Below, one piece after another: positions 11,594 to 52,867 of a stretch of DNA of 64,000 nt. Source of the DNA: an uncultured Acidimicrobiia bacterium. Lineage in GTDB: Bacteria > Actinomycetota > Acidimicrobiia > Acidimicrobiales > Ilumatobacteraceae. The position numbers and the translations under genes are program-made. Each line of letters opens with the position of its first letter. Position 1 is the first letter of the stretch. The notes under the pieces are model-generated. The model was not told where the DNA came from. It saw nothing but the letters and a program-made list of their open reading frames with translations, and ran no database searches. The stretch lies in the NCBI GenBank assembly GCA_963833145.1, contig CAWHWT010000006.1, positions 33,221 through 97,220 on the forward strand, read 5' to 3'.

Positions 11594-12226
11594 ATGACTG
11601 TTCAACACGACCACAGCGGTGCGACCCGGGGTGCGTCCGATCAATCCACTGCCGGCCGGGTGGCCGAGACGGCGATGAGCGAAGTGTCGAACGTGGCCTC
11701 GACCGCCACCGGGGGAGCCCGCGATGTGGCGAGTGAGGCTGGTGCGCAGGCCAAGGCGGTGGCGGGTGAGGCCAAGCAGCAGCTCGACCGGCTGATCAGC
11801 CAGGGACGCGACGAGGTCCGCGAGCAGGCCGAGCAGCGCAGCTCGCAAGCGGCGGGACAGCTCCGCACGCTGTCTGAGCAGGTCAGTGCCCTCGTCGCGG
11901 GCCGGCCCGAGGAGGCGGGGCCGCTGGTGGGGTACGCGAGCGATCTGCAGGGCCAGCTCCGCCGGCTCGCGTCCCGGGTGGAGCAGGGTGGAGCGCAGGG
12001 CGTGATGGACGACGTCACCCGGTTCGCCCGGCGCCGCCCGGGTGCGTTTCTCGTCGGCGCGGCCGGCGTCGGCTTTCTCGTCGGCCGGCTGGTGCGGGCA
12101 GGTGTGGCGAACCAGCGGGAGAACGACCCGTCGACCGGCGAGGCGCTGCCGACTCCGCCGAACGGCCCGGCGTTCGAGGAGTCGAGCTTGCCACCGCCGG
12201 TGGGCTCCGCCGGGGCGGCGCGATGA
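11594..12226 (+). CDS. Hypothetical helical protein with C-terminal TM anchor
   Basis: ATG 11594 follows GAAGGAGG. The product is Ala/Gln/Glu-rich helical sequence, followed by RRRPGAFLVGAAGVGFLVGRLV. It is the first gene of a three-gene plus-strand operon, and its stop overlaps the next start. Confidence 0.65.
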   Translation: MTVQHDHSGATRGASDQSTAGRVAETAMSEVSNVASTATGGARDVASEAGAQAKAVAGEAKQQLDRLISQGRDEVREQAEQRSSQAAGQLRTLSEQVSALVAGRPEEAGPLVGYASDLQGQLRRLASRVEQGGAQGVMDDVTRFARRRPGAFLVGAAGVGFLVGRLVRAGVANQRENDPSTGEALPTPPNGPAFEESSLPPPVGSAGAAR

Positions 12227-12669
12227 GCAGCACCCCAACGTCCGACCGGATGAACGCCGGGAGTGGCTACGACCCGGCAACGGAGCCGAGGCGGCCGGAG
12301 GCGTCGCTCGGCGAGCTGGTGGCGGAGATGACCTCGGACCTCAGCACCCTGTTCCGCAAGGAGATCGATCTCGCCAAGACCGAGGCCCACGAGGAGCTCA
12401 AACAGGCCGGCAAGGCCGGCGGGATGCTCGGCGGCGCGGCGGTCGCCGGCTGGTTGGCGCTGTTGCTGTTGTCCCTCGCGCTGGCCTGGTTGCTCGACGA
12501 GGTGATGCACATCGCCTTGGCCTTGGCCATTGTCGGCGTGGTGTGGGGGGTGGCGGCCTTCGTCCTTCAGCGCACGGGCCGGGCGGCGCTTGGCCGGGTG
12601 CGGGGACTACCGACGACGAGAGACACCCTCAAGGAGGACGTGGAATGGGCCAAAGCGCAGAAGAGCTGA
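12223..12669 (+). CDS. Holin-X-like (Phage_holin_3_6 family) small membrane protein
   Basis: 148 aa. The stretch LGELVAEMTSDLSTLFRKEIDLAKTEA is followed by two TM helices, a pattern I associate with the actinobacterial Holin-X family. Confidence 0.7.
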   Translation: MSSTPTSDRMNAGSGYDPATEPRRPEASLGELVAEMTSDLSTLFRKEIDLAKTEAHEELKQAGKAGGMLGGAAVAGWLALLLLSLALAWLLDEVMHIALALAIVGVVWGVAAFVLQRTGRAALGRVRGLPTTRDTLKEDVEWAKAQKS

Positions 12670-29997: not shown

Positions 29998-32149
29998 TCA
30001 GGTCAGGGGCAGGTTGCTTGCGGTGGCAGGCGTCGTGGCGATGGCGATGTCGGTGACCGTCACGGGTGGCGTGGTCGACGTCGGCACGAGGGCGACGATG
30101 GAGTGGTTGGTGGTGTGGCGCCATTGCACGGCGTCGTTGACGGTGTCGAAGCCGCTGGCCGGGTCGAAGTGCAGCATGCCGTCCCGGTTGGTTCGCACCA
30201 GCCAGAGGTCGTTGAAGCCGTTGCCGGCGGGGTTGGTCGTCTCGGTGTGGCCGATGGCGGCCAGGCCGGAACCGACCGTGACCACTCCGGTGAGTTCGTC
30301 CTCGTCCGCACCGACGTAGCTCTTCGACCACAGTGGCATTCCGGTCTTGTCGATGCGGATCATCCAGGCGTCCTCGTCGGAATTGCCGGTGGTGCCGGAC
30401 AGGACGTAGTCGTCGCCGGCGACGGTGGTGATGTCGGTTGCGCGGGAGGAGGGGGCGTCGGGTCGGTCGGCGTAGAGCGACGACCACAGGAGGCTGTCGT
30501 GTTCGTCGAACGCGGTGATCCACGGTTGGGCGCAGTTGCATGCGGTGTCGATCGTGTGTCCGCTGATCGCGTAGGTTCCGTCGGGCTGGATGGCGATCCC
30601 GGTTGCGACATCGGAGAAGGGGCCACCGAGGACCTGTGCCGTGAAGGGCGTGCCGTCAGGCCGGAGTCGCATGATCAGCACGTTGCCCTGATCGATGGAG
30701 CGGTCAGGGAGCGCATAGGCGACGTTGCCGACGGCCACCAGGTTGCCGTCGGGCGCCTCGACCAGGTCGACGATGGTGGCGTCACCCGCGCCCGGACCGG
30801 GATCGATCTCGGTGACCGAGATGTCGCCGTCATCGTCGACCGCGACGAGGGTCGGCCGTTCCACCGCGGCGGTCCCGCGCCGGACGCTGCCGGCGACGAT
30901 CGCCCCGCCGGTCGTCGGCATGACAGCTGACCAGACCGCGGAGGTGGCGCCGTCGACGACGACTTGCTTGGACCAGTCCTGCGAGCCGGACTCGGGGTCG
31001 AAACTGCCGGTGCGCAACCGGCCGCTGCCGCTGACCGCGGCGGTCACCAGGTTGCCGGTGCCGGTGCGGCCGACGGCCTGGCTCCCGGACGACTGCGAGT
31101 TCGTGTGCTGCCAGATCCGGGTTGCCGTTTCCGTCGAGTGTCGCCATCCACGGGTTGGCGGCGTCCTCGACCACGACCAGCCGGTCGCCGATCGGGAGCA
31201 CGGCGCCGGCGACGTCGCTGTTGAAGATGTCGAAGGCCCGTGACCAGCGGGTGGAGACGTCCGCCACGGGGCCGTCGTCGGGGGCGTGCGCGATGGGGAA
31301 GTGGGCCGCCGGGAACAATGACGGTGGCCGGCGGGGCAGCCGCGGGAGGCCGGCGGGATCGGGTGTGGCCCACGCGTACTTCAGGCCGGCCGTGCCGTCG
31401 AGGGACCACCACGGATCGGCGGTGAGGTCGACGTCGAGCGCGGCGCCGAGCGCGGCGATCAGTGCCGGACCGCCGATCGGGACACCGTTCAGCAGCATCA
31501 TGAACGTCACCGAGATGTTCAGCTCGACCTCGGCGTTGAACGCCAGCGCGTTGGCGGCGTCGGGGAGCCCGATCTCGGGCCGGAAGCTTGGTCGCTGCTC
31601 GGCGGTCGCCGTGGGCCGTCCGCCGAGCTTGGCGATGGCGGCGCTGACGTTGAACGGAGCGACCAGACTGAGCTGGGCGCCGGCCTCGGCGTGACCGGAG
31701 AACTGCACGTCAATGCCGAGGTACGGGATGACGGTCACGGGCCCGGCGGGGAACTCGCCCACCGGCACGCTGAGCACCTCGAGGATGCCGTCGAGGTCGC
31801 CTGACGTCTCGGCCGCCAACTCGAGGGTCAGCGCACCGCGCAGCCCGAGATCGGAATCGAACTCCGTCAGCGCGTCGTCCTCGAGGGTCGGCCTGAGGTC
31901 GGTGCCCGCCCACGTGACCGCGAGGTTGCCGTTGGCGACCACGCTGGCATCGCCGGACTCACCGAGGACCACGTCGTCGATCGGCACGTACAAACCGTCC
32001 TGGAAGCCCTCGATGTTCACGGGCAACGGCACGGCCGCGGCGGGCTGGGCGTCGACGGCGGTCGTGGCCGCGACGACGGCGACGAGTGAGGTGAGCACCA
32101 GTGCGCGTCGGCGGCGAACTCGACGGCCCGGGGAGGTCGTGGTCGGCAT
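29998..32149 (-). pseudogene. Secreted protein (unknown N-domain + SBBP/delta-60-like beta-propeller repeats) split by one frame disruption
   Basis: Track ORFs 30830..32221 and 29998..31047 form one gene. Sensible sequence switches frame at CCGGG 31107-31111 (..WMATLDGNGNP / IWQHTNSQSSGS..). The signal peptide is MPTTTSPGRRVRRRRALVLTSLVAVVAATTAVDA, from ATG 32149. This could be an assembly error rather than a true pseudogene. Confidence 0.7.
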
Positions 32150-32357
32150 GTCGGGTGGTCCCTTCGGTCGGATCCGCCGGTCGTTCCGGCGGGGGATGCC
32201 GAGATCGCAATCCAGCACCACTGCCGTTACGGCGCGTCGGTGCCGATCGGGTCGCGATATGCGCCCGATGTAGGGAAAACCCGTAGGCGTACGTCCCCGG
32301 TGTGTCGATGTGCGTGATCCGCCCTACGCTCGGGGGCGTACGGGAGGGAGACAGCGG

Positions 32358-47501: not shown

Positions 47502-47555
47502 AGCGAGCTCTGAGGGCCGTGGACGGGGGGCGTGGGGTGCGCCAGGATACGCGTC

Positions 47556-49403
47556 ATGGACGTTCCCGAATATGTACGCCACGAGGGATTGAAGCGGTGG
47601 GTCGCCGAGATGGTCGACCTGTGCAATCCCGCCGCCGTGCACTGGTGCGACGGGTCCGACGAGGAGTACGACCGGCTCTGCCAGGAGCTCGTCGACGCCG
47701 GGACGTTCATCCGGTTGAACGAGCAGCGCCGCCCGAGCAGCTTCCTCGCCCGGTCCGACCCGAGCGACGTGGCACGGGTCGAGGATCGCACGTTCATCTG
47801 CTCGAAGAACCGGGACGACGCCGGACCGACCAACAACTGGATGGACCCGGCGGAGATGAAGGCGACCCTGGCCGGCCTCTTCGACGAGTGCATGGCCGGG
47901 CGCACGATGTACGTGGTCCCGTTCAGCATGGGCCCGCTCGGCTCGCCGATCGCCCAGCTCGGCGTCGAGATCACCGACTCGGCCTACGTCGCCGTGAACA
48001 TGAAGATCATGACGCGTATGGGTCGCGACGCAGTCGAGGTCCTCGGCGCGGACCAGCCGTTCGTCCCGTGCATGCACACCGTGGGCGCGCCGCTGCCCAA
48101 CGGCGCGGCCGATGTGCCGTGGCCCTGCAACCCCGACGTCAAGTACATCGTGCACTTCCCCGAGGAGCGGTCGATCTGGAGCTACGGGAGCGGCTACGGC
48201 GGCAACGCCCTGCTCGGCAAGAAGTGCCTGGCCCTGCGCATCGCGTCCGTGATGGCACGAGACGAGGGATGGCTCGCCGAGCACATGCTGATCATGGGCG
48301 TCACCGACCCGCAGGGCGAGAAGACGTACGTGGCGGCGGCGTTCCCGAGTGCCTGCGGCAAGACGAACTTCGCCATGCTCGTGCCGCCGCCTGCGTTTGC
48401 CGACGAGGGTTGGCGGGTCACGACGGTCGGCGACGACATCGCCTGGATCAAGCCGGGGACCGACGGAAGGCTCTTTGCGATCAACCCCGAGGCCGGGTAC
48501 TTCGGCGTCGCGCCGGGCACGTCGTACTCGACGAACCCGTCGGCGATGGAGTCGATCCGAGCCAACACCATCTTCACCAACGTCGCCCTCACCGACGACG
48601 GCGACGTCTGGTGGGAGGGCATGGACGGCGACCCACCGGCGCACGCGATCGACTGGCAGGGCCACGACTGGACGCCCGACTCCGGCACCAAGGCGTCGCA
48701 TCCCAACGCCAGGTTCACCGCCCCGGCGAGCCAGAACCCGGCGCTCGACCCGGATTGGGACGACCCCCAAGGCGTGCCGATCAACGCCTTCATCTTCGGC
48801 GGTCGCCGCTCCGGCACGATCCCCCTCGTCGGCCAGAGCTTCAACTGGGCCTACGGCGTGTACATGGCGGCCACGATGGGCTCGGAGACCACGGCCGCGG
48901 CGTTCGGCGAGCAGGGAGTCGTTCGCCGCGACCCCTTCGCCATGCTCCCGTTCGCCGGCTACCACATGGCGAGCTACATCAACCACTGGCTGTCGTTCGG
49001 TCGCAACATCCCCAACCCTCCGCGGATCTTCCAGGTCAACTGGTTCCGCCGCGACAGCGACGGCAAGTTCGCCTGGCCGGGCTTCGGCGAGAACATGCGG
49101 GTCCTGCAGTGGATCGTCGAACGGTCACACGGCCGGGCCTTCGGGCTCGAGAGTCCGCTCGGTTGGATGCCTCGGTACCAGGACCTCAACTGGAAGGGTC
49201 TGGAGGACTTCTCCGAGAGCGAGTTCCGCGACTGCATGTCGATCGACCGCAGCGACTGGGATGCCGAGCTGCTCGAGGTCGAGGAGCTGTTCATGAAGCT
49301 GCACACGCGGCTGCCCAACGAGATGCACTGGATCCGCTCGCTCACCGCCAGTGCCCTGTGGCGGTCCCCCGAGCGTTGGGAGATGAACCCCGATCCGACG
49401 TGA
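47556..49403 (+). CDS. pckG: Phosphoenolpyruvate carboxykinase (GTP)
   Basis: Unmistakable GTP-PEPCK sequence: [80 protein letters not shown] chose ATG 47556. Confidence 0.95.
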
Positions 49404-49416
49404 GTGTCGGACGCCG

Positions 49417-49809
49417 TCAGCCGTTGACCGCTTCGACGGTGCTGATGTCGGTGAGCGTCGGAAGCGGGGAGCGCGCCGCCATCGCCGTGTCCTCCGTCGC
49501 CCCCGGCACGTAGAGGTGACCGGAAGCTTCGACGACCTTGCCCTCGAGGTCCGCCAACTCGTCGTCGGGGCGCGCGCCGAGCTCGACGAAGCCGCCGTCG
49601 GTGAGCCGGACGTGGGCGATCTGTTTCACCGAGCGCCACCCGCCGTCCCCGTCGGGGACCTTCATGGTGTGGCCGCCGAGGTCCTGGACGGTGTACGTGC
49701 CCTGCACCGTGACGTCCTCGTCGACGTGTTCGGCGACCTCCTGCGAGGAACTGAGCACGCCGTCGCGCACCGGCACCTCTTCCGCGTCGGAGGAGCGGCG
49801 CTTCCTCAC
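49417..49809 (-). CDS. Small acidic protein translationally coupled to the DUF4157-type gene (candidate immunity protein)
   Basis: 130 aa. GTG 49809-49807 overlaps the upstream TGA 49808-49806. GC3 bias is strong throughout. I recognised no motif. Confidence 0.65.
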   Translation of the reverse strand: MRKRRSSDAEEVPVRDGVLSSSQEVAEHVDEDVTVQGTYTVQDLGGHTMKVPDGDGGWRSVKQIAHVRLTDGGFVELGARPDDELADLEGKVVEASGHLYVPGATEDTAMAARSPLPTLTDISTVEAVNG

Positions 49810-51410
49810 GCCTTGACTCCGAACGTCGAGCCCCGGGTGCCGTGGGTCCCGCTGGCGAGGTGCTCCTCGTGGAACGTCTGGTCCTTCTTCTCGGTGCCGT
49901 ACATCTGGTAGACGTACTTGCGGTTGACCTCGTCGTAGGCCTGCTGTTGGAGCTGCTTGTTGATCACCGGGTCGGGGTCGCTGCCGTAGCTGACGGCGTA
50001 GTTCTCCAGGGTGATGTTGTTCGGGCCGTCCTTCATGACGACGCCCGCCCAGTGGAAGTTCCAGGTGCTCCCCGAGCTCGTGAAGCCGGGCATGTTCTCC
50101 TCGGTGACGAGCGTGTAGGCCCCGCCGATCTCCGGGTTGGCGGCGAGGTTGATGCCGGTGAACGCGTCGAAGGCCTTGCGGCCCGCCTTGCCCAGCTCCC
50201 AGTACTGCCGCTTGGCCTCGTCGTCGGTCGCGGCGGTGATCAGCTGGCGCTTGCCGAAGAGTCCGCCGCCGGTGTAGTGGATGCCCTTCTTGAGGTGCTT
50301 CCCGTTCGCCTTCACGGCCATGAACTGGGGTATCGCCTGCTTGTAGAGGCTGGTGAAGTCCTCCGGATTGGTCGACGAACCCGACTTGACGTCCGTGGTG
50401 CCGATCCTGGCGTGGGCGCGGGGGCCGATGGCGGTTCCCATCACCGCCCGCGACGAGCGGCCGCAGTCGGCCCAGAGGGCGAACTCGGCGGCCTTGGTGC
50501 CGTCGTCGTCCTTGAGCTTGCCCTTGTTGATCCGCTTCAGCTTCTCGTCGCCGGGGTCAGGGCCGACCGTGACGAGCCGGGGGGTGACGGGGCTGACGTT
50601 GTTCGCCACGCCCTTCAGGAGGCCACCCTTGAGCGTCTTCGTGTCGTCGATCGCCAGCCGCACGAAGGAGCCGTTGGTGCCGGCCTGCTTCAGTCCCTTG
50701 TTGGCTTGTTTGATGAGGTCAGGCGGGGCGAACAGCGTCTGACCGCCTTCTTTCTGGGTCACGCACAACGCCGTCTTCCCGCTCTCGGACACCCGCCACG
50801 TGTCGCCGTCGGTGTCGGTACGGACCTTGTAGCGACGCACGACGCGCCGAGCCCGCTCGGCGCCGCCCTGCTGCACGACGTGGGCCAGCTCGTGGCCGAG
50901 CAGCCACTGCCCGCCGCGGGTCGCCGGGCGGTACTGGCCCGGAGCGAAGTGGATGTCCGTGCCGAGGGTGAACGCCGAGGCCTGGATCCTCGACGGGACG
51001 TCGCTGTCGGGGTGGACGCGTACCGCAGCCAGGTCGACGCCCGTGGCCGACTCCATCGTCGCCCGTGTCGTCGGGTCGAGCGGCGCACCTGTGCTCGCCC
51101 GGATGCGGCGGGCGACATCGTCGGACACGTCGCCGCCATCCAACCCGACCGCGGTCGGGGCGGCGGAGCGGACGATGCGCGTGGACTCGGTCGCGAACAG
51201 CGACGCAGCGGGGTCGGTGTCCGGCGGCGATCGGAGCGCTCCCAGGACCTGGTCGGCGAAGCGGTCGGCGGACCGCTCGGCCGGGTCGTTCGCGGCGCCG
51301 ACGAGCAGCTTCTTCTGCAGCACCGGCTTCGCCGTCAACGGTTCGGGCCGCTCGCGGCGCCGTGACGCCGCTTCGGGCCGCTGCTCGGCCACCTTCGCAC
51401 GATCGAACAT
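49806..51410 (-). CDS. DUF4157-type (zincin-like HExxH) protein with uncharacterised Lys-rich C-terminal domain; polymorphic-toxin-like
   Basis: ATG 51410 follows GGAGGGA. The N-terminal box is LLVGAANDPAERSADRFADQVL. It is followed by LDPTTRATMESATGVDLAAVRVHPDS..AFTLGTDIHFAPGQY..WLLGHELAHVVQQ (HExxH codons at 50880-50894) and about 340 unassigned residues. Confidence 0.8.
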   Translation of the reverse strand: MFDRAKVAEQRPEAASRRRERPEPLTAKPVLQKKLLVGAANDPAERSADRFADQVLGALRSPPDTDPAASLFATESTRIVRSAAPTAVGLDGGDVSDDVARRIRASTGAPLDPTTRATMESATGVDLAAVRVHPDSDVPSRIQASAFTLGTDIHFAPGQYRPATRGGQWLLGHELAHVVQQGGAERARRVVRRYKVRTDTDGDTWRVSESGKTALCVTQKEGGQTLFAPPDLIKQANKGLKQAGTNGSFVRLAIDDTKTLKGGLLKGVANNVSPVTPRLVTVGPDPGDEKLKRINKGKLKDDDGTKAAEFALWADCGRSSRAVMGTAIGPRAHARIGTTDVKSGSSTNPEDFTSLYKQAIPQFMAVKANGKHLKKGIHYTGGGLFGKRQLITAATDDEAKRQYWELGKAGRKAFDAFTGINLAANPEIGGAYTLVTEENMPGFTSSGSTWNFHWAGVVMKDGPNNITLENYAVSYGSDPDPVINKQLQQQAYDEVNRKYVYQMYGTEKKDQTFHEEHLASGTHGTRGSTFGVKA

Positions 51411-51511
51411 CGCTTCCCTCCGGGACTCGTCCCCGACGCTCGGGTTCGACAGTACCCGGCCGCGGTGGGCCGAGTCCATGGTGCGGTCGGGAAGATCCGG
51501 CCCACGCTCGC

Positions 51512-51757
51512 TCAGTCCGCCGGCCGCAGGTGAGTCCGGTAGACGTGGGTCGTCCACTGGCGTCGGTACTCGCTCGAGGTGAGGAGCGACCGCACCTGGT
51601 CGAGCAGCGGGGAGTCGCTCCTCGTCGGCGAGCCCGTGCCCGCACCGAGGTCGAGCACCGTCGCCGCCGGCGGAAGGTCCGCGAGCACGCCACGGGGCCA
51701 GCCCGGACGCCCGCGTTCATAGTCGTCGGGCCACCGATCGCCGCTGCCGGCGGGCAT
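51512..51757 (-). pseudogene. Class I SAM-methyltransferase remnant (internal deletion)
   Basis: The 81-aa ORF joins an N-terminal YERGRPGWP..VLDLGAGTG (motif I) directly to a C-terminal-looking PLLDQVRSLL..THVYRT tail. The roughly 140-170 residues normally in between are absent, and the locus has no room for them. Confidence 0.5.
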
Positions 51758-51840
51758 GTTCCAAGTCGTCGTCGTCAGACGCCCTGACCGTACGGCTGCC
51801 TACCGCCGGCCTCCTGGCCCGTTTCCGCGTTTCGAACCCG

Positions 51841-52128
51841 TTAGAGACCCTGGACCAAGACGCCGAAGCCGGTGGTTGACGCTTGACGCATGCCGAGGAT
51901 CGCCTGATACTCCGGCGACTCGTACCAGATGTGGAAGTCCTCTTCGTTCTCGAACTCGAGGATCACGGTGCGAGGCCCCGGCGGCTCTCCTTCGATGGTC
52001 TTGCACTCGGTGTCCACGGCGAGCACCTTGACCGGCACGACGCCGAGCGTCGGACCGGCCGCCTGCACGTACTCGCTGAGCAATTCGGGATTGTCGATGG
52101 TCGAGTTGACAACCAGGTAGGTGGGCAT
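51841..52128 (-). CDS. DUF1330-like protein
   Basis: ATG 52128. MPTYLVVNSTIDNPELLSEYVQ..VILEFENEEDFHIWYESPEYQAI is typical of DUF1330. Confidence 0.75.
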   Translation of the reverse strand: MPTYLVVNSTIDNPELLSEYVQAAGPTLGVVPVKVLAVDTECKTIEGEPPGPRTVILEFENEEDFHIWYESPEYQAILGMRQASTTGFGVLVQGL

Positions 52129-52258
52129 GGTGGCCGGTGCTAGCACAATCCGCTCAACACCTGTGACATGGCCCGTGCCTCGGTGGGAGGGCGTGGTCTG
52201 CCGAGATCGGCGGAGATGTGGAAGGATCCGGCCCGCGCTCACGAACGGGAGGTCGGGC

Positions 52259-52867
52259 ATGTCCGATGACCATGCGCTCATCGACGTTCACGCCGGGGAT
52301 GACCTGACCCCGCTGGCCGGAACGTGGGACGTCGATCCGACGCACTCGGCGCTCGAGTTCGTCGCCCGGTACGCGGTGTTCACGCTCGTGCGCGGCCGCT
52401 TCACGTCGTTCTCCGGCACCGTCGTGCTCGATCCACTGCACCCCGAAGCGACCGCGGTCGACGTCGAAATCGACGCGGCCTCCGTGGACACGGCGATGGG
52501 GGTGCGCGACGGCCACCTGCGAGGCGATGAGTTCTTCGACGTCGAGCGCCACCCGACGATCTCGTTCCACTCCCAGGGGGTGACGGTCCTGGCGGCTGGG
52601 CGCTACACCGTGCGCGGCGACCTCACGATCCGCGGCATCACCCAGCCGGTCCGGCTGGTCGTGGACGTGTTCGGGCGCGCCCCGGACGTGCTGGGCAACC
52701 CCCGGATCGGCTTGCGAGCGACGGCGAAGGTGCAACGGGCCGTCTGGGACATCAAGTGGAACTCCACCGTCCCCGGCGGTGGCGTCGCCTTGGCGGACGA
52801 CGTCGACCTCGAGCTCGACGTCTCGCTGGTGCCGGCCGGCTCGGCGGGGGACGGCCCGGCGGGTTGA
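52259..52867 (+). CDS. YceI-family polyisoprenoid-binding-like protein
   Basis: ATG 52259 follows GGGAGG. Motifs seen: GTWDVDPTHSALEF..RGRFTSFSGTV, HLRGDEFFDVERHPTISF. Confidence 0.85.
   Translation: MSDDHALIDVHAGDDLTPLAGTWDVDPTHSALEFVARYAVFTLVRGRFTSFSGTVVLDPLHPEATAVDVEIDAASVDTAMGVRDGHLRGDEFFDVERHPTISFHSQGVTVLAAGRYTVRGDLTIRGITQPVRLVVDVFGRAPDVLGNPRIGLRATAKVQRAVWDIKWNSTVPGGGVALADDVDLELDVSLVPAGSAGDGPAG

Follow-up and report, generated by a model that had tools for sequence, protein, structure and literature searches.

DUF4157, a domain now listed as eCIS_core, is a core domain of extracellular contractile injection systems (eCIS) and a marker of their effectors, in which it stands N-terminal to toxin domains (PMC8213781; PMC11297309). 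The cargo of these systems is laid out as a disordered N-terminal domain, DUF4157 and then a C-terminal domain (CTD), and is loaded by an AAA+ ATPase through the N-terminal domain; in AlgoCIS, loading requires the leader and the ATPase, and DUF4157 is dispensable (PMC8894135; bioRxiv 10.64898/2026.05.27.728243). Proteins with a DUF4157 head make up the main class among predicted eCIS effectors, and 983 of the 1,130 predicted ones have no other annotated domain (PMC11297309), and the usual absence of immunity genes beside antibacterial eCIS toxins is an open puzzle in the field (PMC8213781). Here, we analysed a 64-kb stretch of contig CAWHWT010000006.1 from an uncultured Acidimicrobiia bacterium (the window), in which a DUF4157-headed gene (gene A) is followed on the minus strand by a small acidic gene (gene B).

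We read genes A and B as a two-gene eCIS-type effector/immunity cassette, represented in the window by an orphan copy, and give this reading, together with the mechanism proposed below, a probability of about 0.6. The effector domain and the partner both belong to undescribed families; they do not amount to a new principle.

The candidate effector gene and its C-terminal domain

The 534-aa product of gene A starts at an ATG at position 51410, with a GGAGG 6 nt upstream; the longest open reading frame (ORF) alternative starts at a GTG at 51557 and would encode 583 aa. Both the exact 534-aa product and the 130-aa product of gene B are called genes on record, on the same 188-kb NCBI/ENA contig. 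The GC content at third codon positions (GC3) of the two genes was 0.92–0.93, the same as that of the adjacent pckG, and the isoelectric point (pI) of the gene A product was 9.4. No consensus sigma-70 promoter was found on the cassette strand upstream of gene A.

An original prediction, made from the letters of the window alone, had proposed a DUF4157 layout with an HExxH motif at 50880–50894, followed by about 340 residues that it could not place, and had described the N-terminal module as a common head of toxins with variable C-termini. The head was borne out, as PF13699 (eCIS_core, formerly DUF4157) matched with 89.1 bits, well above the cut-off of 22 (E 2e-25, model positions 1–78 of 79; aa 159–233 on the 583-aa ORF, corresponding to aa 110–184 on the 534-aa protein), and the zinc-binding motif was present as HELAH at aa 173–177. 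Among family members of at least 430 aa, 162 of 183 (89%) keep HExxH. The segment ahead of the domain (aa 1–108) contains 64% disorder-promoting residues and 2.8% aromatic residues, figures that describe composition only and not the output of a disorder predictor, and this leader may correspond to the disordered sequence by which the AlgoCIS cargo proteins Cgo1/Cgo2 are loaded. A 'DPAERSADRFA' box begins at aa 42 of the leader; a DPxExxAD box precedes HExxH in 11 relatives, as in the window protein, and follows it in 26.

Single-sequence and profile searches with the residues behind the head gave no match in Pfam, NCBIfam, PADLOC, PHROGs or PDB sequences, but these residues form a conserved domain family and not a variable tail. 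A word-indexed search returned 195 related proteins, and a CTD-only profile run against a library of 1.84 billion proteins retrieved 1,068 representative clusters (50% identity) at E ≤ 0.001 and 549 at E ≤ 1e-10. Nearly all members are 480–580 aa long with PF13699 in front. Among the top 150 of the 1,068 representatives, ten of the longest variants, with extra sequence around the CTD, carried PF13699 or no Pfam domain; the remaining members checked had a DUF4157 head or a short LQRxxGNxAV leader, and no fusion to another delivery head (Rhs, PAAR, LXG, CdiA etc.) was found among the members checked. About 14 genomic members lack DUF4157 and begin with a short leader holding LQRxxGNxAV, followed by the same (V/I)QRY junction as in DUF4157-headed members; loci with such genes include L007, L009, L025, L049, L064, L071, L072 and L082. 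Because the CTD is conserved and was found only behind DUF4157 or a short leader in the members checked, the term 'polymorphic' applies to the head, not to the CTD.

Five polar residues of the CTD are nearly invariant among 195 members that are non-redundant at 80% identity, namely Asp125 (98%), Cys126 (99%), Asn231 (96%), His263 (100%) and Glu279 (99%). In the AlphaFold2 model of the domain, with a predicted local distance difference test score (pLDDT) of 93.9 and a predicted TM-score (pTM) of 0.92, Cys126 is placed at the N-terminus of a helix, and His263 and Glu279 lie on consecutive strands, 16 residues apart. The CTD is most likely a cysteine hydrolase, and this predicted arrangement resembles that of papain, NlpC-P60 and CHAP enzymes. 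A metal site formed by one cysteine and three histidines (C126, H263, H327, H333) was considered and dropped, since H327 is conserved below 90% and H333 only at 92% in the wider family.

No relative of the CTD was found in 2.9 million viral contigs (IMG/VR). Carriage by phages or plasmids was dropped as an explanation on this negative result, the sole plasmid match being a distant partial relative on the Streptomyces clavuligerus megaplasmid pSCL4. In this very distant relative (L089, 5688–8312), an LQRAIGNAAV leader and a long acidic linker occur together with the motif WAYHFAGVVLKDG..VTLENY; no homologue of the partner was found nearby, and the gene table of the record lists no gene there.

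The partner gene and its linkage to the C-terminal domain

The TGA of gene A (49808–49806) overlaps the GTG of gene B (49809–49807) as GTGA, with a GGAG 8 nt 5′ of the GTG, which confirms the overlap with a 130-aa acidic coding ORF seen earlier. The gene B product has a pI of 4.5 and a net charge of −12, with no match in PADLOC, Pfam or NCBIfam. It has 20 close and 65 profile-detectable relatives, which are unnamed or misnamed throughout and none of which carries a Pfam domain; G37, Y39, R80 and E84 are invariant in a 32-sequence alignment drawn from many phyla. The AlphaFold2 model (pLDDT 81.6) has the order b1-b2-b3-helix-b4-b5, and the top 50 Foldseek matches were essentially all oligonucleotide/oligosaccharide-binding (OB) domains (AspRS N-domain, MCM, RPA, SSB, RecG, lipoprotein 3f1z), with probabilities of 0.8–1.0 and E-values of only 3e-3 to 7e-2. 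Gene B is thus predicted by its model to be an OB-fold protein. Sequence matches in PDB to ubiquitin variants, collagen and, via an 'LLPP' stretch, histone H2A were set aside as noise. Two partner homologues are publicly annotated as 'histidine kinase' and 'single-stranded DNA-binding protein'.

The pairing proposed from the window recurs widely. We surveyed one genome per species (GTDB), which yielded 99 species with a CTD relative and 80 loci that were kept, and detected partners by hidden Markov model (HMM) searches of six-frame ORFs. A partner homologue lay directly 3′ of the CTD gene in 73 of the 80 species-level loci, across more than ten phyla, and two of the seven loci lacking one are contig ends. 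A missing PF13699 match or a lack of such co-occurrence would have refuted the original prediction, which withstood both checks. The partner start often overlaps the stop of the CTD gene by 4 nt or 1 nt, and short gaps are also common. Pairwise identities of CTDs and partners correlate with r = 0.77, and the charges are complementary, with an acidic partner (pI 4.5) and a basic effector (pI about 9.4). The partner was present in about 12 loci whose CTD gene lacks DUF4157 and is therefore taken to follow the CTD rather than the head; where the same loci hold DUF4157 genes with different C-termini, those genes do not have this partner. Given that the flanks vary between loci, genes A and B move as a unit.

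Two arrangements deviate from this pattern. The 89-aa P0140, on a 633-kb NCBI/ENA contig, joins a fragment resembling CTD residues 134–168 to the C-terminal 45% of a partner (81% identical) and resembles what would be left of a cassette that has decayed, with an internal deletion, in another genome. In Paenibacillus aurantiacus (L071, 6435–10900), a CTD gene lacking both DUF4157 and a detectable partner lies directly 3′ of a 1,022-aa ORF in which cyclic-nucleotide-binding, C39-peptidase-like and ABC-exporter motifs were recognised by eye, an arrangement that hints at a different export route in Firmicutes.

With the most upstream in-frame start past the toxin stop taken as the N-terminus of each partner, a lipoprotein-type signal was called in about 38 of the 73 partners, by a hydrophobic stretch and a lipobox-like Cys pattern and not by a trained predictor. 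Partners with such a signal were confined to Myxococcota, delta-proteobacteria, an unclassified proteobacterial metagenome-assembled genome (MAG), Cyanobacteria and Bacteroidota, and none was seen in Actinomycetota, the window included, or Chloroflexota. For VgrG2b, a type VI secretion system (T6SS) effector, the main clue that it acts in the periplasm was that its immunity protein had to be exported, and the homologues of its immunity protein differ by lineage in their route to the periplasm (PMC6899460). By the logic of VgrG2b and its inhibitor PA0261, the predicted export of the partners suggests an envelope target of the CTD in many double-membraned lineages. In public gene calls, the partner is often begun at an internal Met, which removes a lipoprotein signal whose start overlaps the toxin stop codon (L005/L027 and many Bacteroidota partners, P0156–P0183).

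Injection-system context and competing explanations

The link of the DUF4157 head to eCIS cargo and the absence of a secretion apparatus from the window, both stated in the original prediction, held up. We searched the window by Pfam on about 50 candidate ORFs and by six-frame translation against CTD, N-terminal and partner HMMs and against AAA+, tape-measure and large-protein queries. Neither sheath, tube, baseplate, PAAR, tape-measure, Afp15-type AAA+, T6SS or type VII secretion system genes nor a second DUF4157 gene were found in the 64 kb. The window therefore holds an orphan copy, with no eCIS operon inside it at the distance of about ten genes by which eCIS-associated toxins are defined (Geller 2021, Danov 2024, Xu 2022).

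Homologues of the cassette do adjoin such genes. In a Burkholderiaceae MAG (L004), the pair lies 3′ of a fibre gene, between a CIS_TMP tape-measure gene upstream and an AAA gene downstream, and in a Nitrospirota MAG (L008), whose CTD is 60% identical to that of the window, the locus runs through a fibre gene, a large protein, CIS_TMP (362 bits), AAA+, toxin, partner and a second DUF4157 gene. A tape-measure gene was present within 10 kb in 8 of the 80 loci, which lie inside eCIS clusters, an AAA+ gene of the L004/L008 family in about 24, often directly adjacent, and further DUF4157 genes in 18. Since eCIS are carried by only about 1.9% of sequenced bacteria (PMC8213781), the association of the CTD family with eCIS genes is strong. 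In seven Myxococcota loci (L003, L010–L013, L016 and L022), a divergent 660-aa AAA+ gene of the eCIS-loader family adjoins the cassette and no tape-measure gene was found within 10 kb; these loci look like a mini-module of loader, cargo and immunity gene, apart from any visible injection locus.

Taking these observations together, we propose that gene A encodes an eCIS cargo in which a low-complexity leader and an optional zincin-like DUF4157 module precede an effector domain at the C-terminus. This last domain would be a cysteine hydrolase using Cys126, His263 and Glu279, assisted by Asp125 and Asn231, and its probable target is a component of the cell envelope, such as peptidoglycan or its precursors. 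The acidic gene B product would bind the basic effector domain and block it. The partner of double-membraned bacteria, usually a predicted lipoprotein, would protect the periplasm from effector injected by kin, and in single-membraned lineages, including that of the window, a signal-less partner would work in the cytoplasm, the site of effector synthesis. The window copy may be cargo for a system whose genes lie in another part of the genome, or be kept as a self-contained toxin/antidote pair. A wider claim, which we advance tentatively and regard as somewhat doubtful, is that a structurally new or unrecognisably diverged Cys-His-Glu enzyme and its OB-fold inhibitor form an undescribed antibacterial eCIS-linked pair that occurs in more than ten phyla and some 1,000 clusters, with an immunity gene almost everywhere that is lipoprotein or cytoplasmic according to envelope type, and with many copies located away from injection loci or served by another export route.

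Several points weigh against the effector/immunity reading. No papain, NlpC-P60 or CHAP Pfam model matched at E ≤ 1 across 71 members of the CTD alignment, and Foldseek searches of the CTD model against PDB and BFVD gave no match at E ≤ 0.001; CHAP, endolysin and papain proteins were the sole recurring theme among weak, non-significant matches, of which the best TM-score was below 0.2. Membership of the papain/CHAP superfamily is not demonstrated by these profile and fold searches, and the putative triad was judged by the positions of residues along the secondary structure of the model and not by distances. The export signals were called by pattern, and partners lacking one also occur in double-membraned Burkholderiales, Thauera/Accumulibacter, Roseobacter and Nitrospirota, which does not fit a purely periplasmic target. 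Such partners may guard the cytoplasm in which the effector is made, or the substrate, wall precursors for example, may be present on both sides of the membrane. In addition, about two thirds of the 80 loci, the window included, have no eCIS gene within 10 kb, among them the Thauera and Accumulibacter pairs, which adjoin nor/cox genes. Finally, what we observed are the domains present, the size of the family, its conserved residues, the linkage of the genes and the eCIS surroundings of homologues; enzymatic activity, target, toxicity, neutralisation and delivery are inferred.

Gene B could instead be a chaperone or adaptor that stabilises the gene A product or passes it on to the ATPase for loading, in the manner of the T6SS adaptors Eag, DUF1795 and DUF4123. 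The tight linkage and co-inheritance of the two genes and the frequent adjacency of the partner to an AAA+ gene would agree with this role, as would the speculation of Danov et al. that chaperones are required by eCIS effectors (PMC11297309). However, roughly half of the partners carry a lipoprotein-type signal and would lie outside the cytoplasm, where eCIS loading occurs (bioRxiv 10.64898/2026.05.27.728243); a downstream, translationally coupled gene occupies the usual position of an immunity gene, and acidic/basic pairing is typical of inhibitor–enzyme pairs, which together leave a chaperone role improbable. Lipoprotein partners would also be unable to neutralise a cytoplasmic toxin, which bears on the idea that the cassette is an intracellular toxin–antitoxin, abortive-infection or addiction module that is never delivered and retains its DUF4157 head as an evolutionary leftover. 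Such a module would account for the missing delivery machinery in the window and near most other loci, for the signal-less, cytoplasmic partner of actinobacteria and for the movement of the cassette between genomic contexts, and Streptomyces contractile injection system (CIS) effectors do act inside their own cell. The conserved leader and HExxH, the strong enrichment beside CIS tape-measure and AAA+ genes, and the lack of PADLOC and viral-contig matches nevertheless argue against an undelivered module, which we regard as unlikely.

A third possibility exchanges the roles of the two domains, with the Cys-His-Glu domain acting as a self-processing or maturation protease, the DUF4157 metallopeptidase as the real toxin, as in the VgrG2b C-terminal domain, and gene B conferring immunity to DUF4157. 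A zincin domain related to DUF4157 has been proven to be toxic in the periplasm, with its immunity protein located in the envelope (PMC6899460), and HExxH is intact in gene A and most of its relatives. This exchange is quite unlikely, given the roughly 12 loci that keep the partner when the CTD gene has no DUF4157, the DUF4157 genes with other C-termini that have no partner in the same loci, and the toxicity of AlgoCIS Cgo1, which is independent of its metalloprotease motifs (PMC8894135). The pair might also be a lysis cassette that frees particles from the producer, built from a CHAP-like wall hydrolase and a spanin-like outer-membrane lipoprotein. The release of eCIS particles by cell lysis (PMC8213781), the weak CHAP/endolysin fold hints and the lipoprotein partners of double-membraned bacteria point in this direction, but single-membraned bacteria, which have no use for spanins, conserve the same OB-fold partner in a signal-less form, endolysins lack a DUF4157 head and long leader, and the family has no PHROG match and is absent from viral contigs, making a lysis cassette highly improbable. 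All four explanations are less consistent than an effector/immunity cassette with the lipoprotein partners, the fidelity of the partner to the CTD and the eCIS contexts.

Positions of the cassette features in the window, with the evidence for each
Feature	Position	Strand	Basis
Gene A, candidate effector of 534 aa with a DUF4157 head (leader + eCIS_core + CTD)	49806..51410, stop included	minus	ORF, ribosome-binding site, GC3 0.92
N-terminal leader, aa 1–109, aromatic-poor, Ala/Arg/Asp/Pro-rich, holds box LLVGAANDPAERSADRFADQVL	51084..51410	minus	composition
eCIS_core / DUF4157 domain, aa 110–184	50859..51083	minus	PF13699 match; HELAH at 50894–50880
CTD, conserved 344 aa (aa 191–534), predicted Cys-His-Glu enzyme	49809..50840	minus	family conservation, AlphaFold2
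Asp125-Cys126 codons (protein aa 315–316), candidate nucleophile	50463..50468	minus	conservation; Cys126 opens helix 126–134
His263 codon (aa 453), candidate general base	50052..50054	minus	100% conserved; start of strand 262–271
Glu279 codon (aa 469), candidate third triad residue	50004..50006	minus	99% conserved; last residue of strand 274–279
Gene B, 130-aa acidic predicted OB-fold protein, candidate immunity protein	49417..49809	minus	overlap, pI, linkage, AlphaFold2, Foldseek
Upstream leader of the cassette, includes GGAGG 51421–51417	51411..51462	minus	sequence; BLASTN of L088 against the window

Genomic surroundings and comparison with known systems

The cassette had been described as wedged between pckG and a gutted methyltransferase. 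On one side, pckG (47532..49403, plus) does adjoin and converges on gene B, with 13 bp between the stop codons; the methyltransferase comes down to an 81-aa ORF (51512..51757, minus) known only by its VLDLGAGTG motif, with no Pfam match and a BLASTP E-value of 0.12 against the neighbouring methyltransferase. This ORF is followed, 5′ of gene A, by a DUF1330 gene, a YceI gene and the intact methyltransferase. In an 89%-identical relative (L088), DUF1330, the cassette and pckG stand in the same order as in the window, with homology starting at 51462, 52 bp 5′ of the ATG; the 373 bp at 51463–51835, which hold the methyltransferase-like remnant, are absent from L088 and replaced by 69 unrelated bases. 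A histone-deacetylase-family gene (PF00850) stands between the YceI side and DUF1330 in L088 (157–1386) and is absent from the window (52179–52215), a difference that is an insertion or deletion beside the cassette.

The appearance of an insertion, to which the original prediction pointed, was rejected as a recent event, because the cassette occupies the same site and gene order in the 89%-identical relative, has native codon usage, and is free of flanking repeats and tRNA genes; no tRNA gene, Rfam match, or direct or inverted repeat pair bracketing it was found in the window. Homologues of the cassette at 60–65% identity sit in unrelated contexts, and the cassette has therefore moved over longer times. 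The window cassette is an orphan, vertically maintained copy in a high-GC genome.

Elsewhere in the window, the longest ORFs of DUF1330 (51841..52281, minus) and YceI (52121..52867, plus) overlap head-to-head by 160 bp. The DUF1330 start is probably internal, leaving no real overlap, because its Pfam match begins at aa 54 and the gene of the relative encodes 95 aa. An actinobacterial Holin-X family membrane protein (PF07332) is encoded at 12223..12669 (plus), with no phage genes around it, and two overlapping high-GC3 ORFs of 349 and 463 aa with no Pfam match lie at 29998..32221 (minus).

For the window itself, the cassette is a modest finding; the CTD/partner family offers an entry point to a large effector/immunity family, in which the pair recurs in more than ten bacterial phyla, so far without a name or a solved structure. 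The candidate effector domains form a large family with well-defined limits and clear candidates for the catalytic residues, and the predicted export signal of the partner points to an envelope target and bacterial prey. Cultured carriers include Thauera sp. 2A1, Chryseobacterium defluvii, Kordia aestuariivivens, Roseobacter weihaiensis and Phytomonospora endophytica; in Chryseobacterium defluvii and C. populi the cassette lies within an eCIS locus. The cassette would add an enzyme/inhibitor pair for engineered injection systems.

The arrangement predicted for the CTD resembles that of CHAP/NlpC-P60 hydrolases, in which a Cys lies at the N-terminus of a helix and two neighbouring strands carry a His and, about 16–17 residues away, an acidic residue followed by an Asn (H263, E279 and N280 in the CTD). 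In the CHAP domain of the phage K endolysin LysK, the site is formed by Cys54, His117, Glu134 and Asn136. The CTD differs in being about twice the size of a CHAP domain, with an extra N-terminal subdomain (residues 1–105) and an insertion of about 110 residues that separates the helix of the Cys from the strand of the His, and in having neither a profile match nor a significant Foldseek match to CHAP/NlpC-P60 proteins.

In their overall layout, the cargo proteins Cgo1 and Cgo2 of AlgoCIS (Algoriphagus machipongonensis; PMC8894135, bioRxiv 10.64898/2026.05.27.728243) are like gene A, with a disordered leader, a central DUF4157 and a folded CTD. Cgo1, at 498 aa, is of similar size, and the Cgo1/Cgo2 genes lie beside an AAA+ loader, as do the L004 and L008 homologues. 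By contrast, the CTD of Cgo1 is a predicted metalloprotease and not a Cys-His-Glu enzyme, no immunity partner has been reported for it, and no eCIS lies near the copy in the window. EAT14 of Chitinophaga rupis (DUF4157 + LysM + transglutaminase-like), which is toxic to E. coli and yeast (PMC11297309), likewise follows its DUF4157 head with a thiol-enzyme domain, of the papain/transglutaminase type (Cys-His-Asp). That domain is known to Pfam (PF09017), whereas the CTD matches no model, and no cognate immunity gene has been described for EAT14.

Effectors that act in the periplasm and carry a small adjacent cognate inhibitor are also found in the T6SS, as in the Tae/Tai amidase pairs. These pairs differ from genes A and B in the delivery machine and in effector and immunity folds, and some gene B homologues have no export signal of any kind. 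In T6SS periplasmic pairs, the route of the inhibitor to the periplasm varies by lineage (soluble, lipoprotein or membrane helix). Another such pair is VgrG2b C-ter/PA0261 (Tpe-Tpi, T6SS; PMC6899460), which combines an envelope-acting effector with a small adjacent inhibitor.

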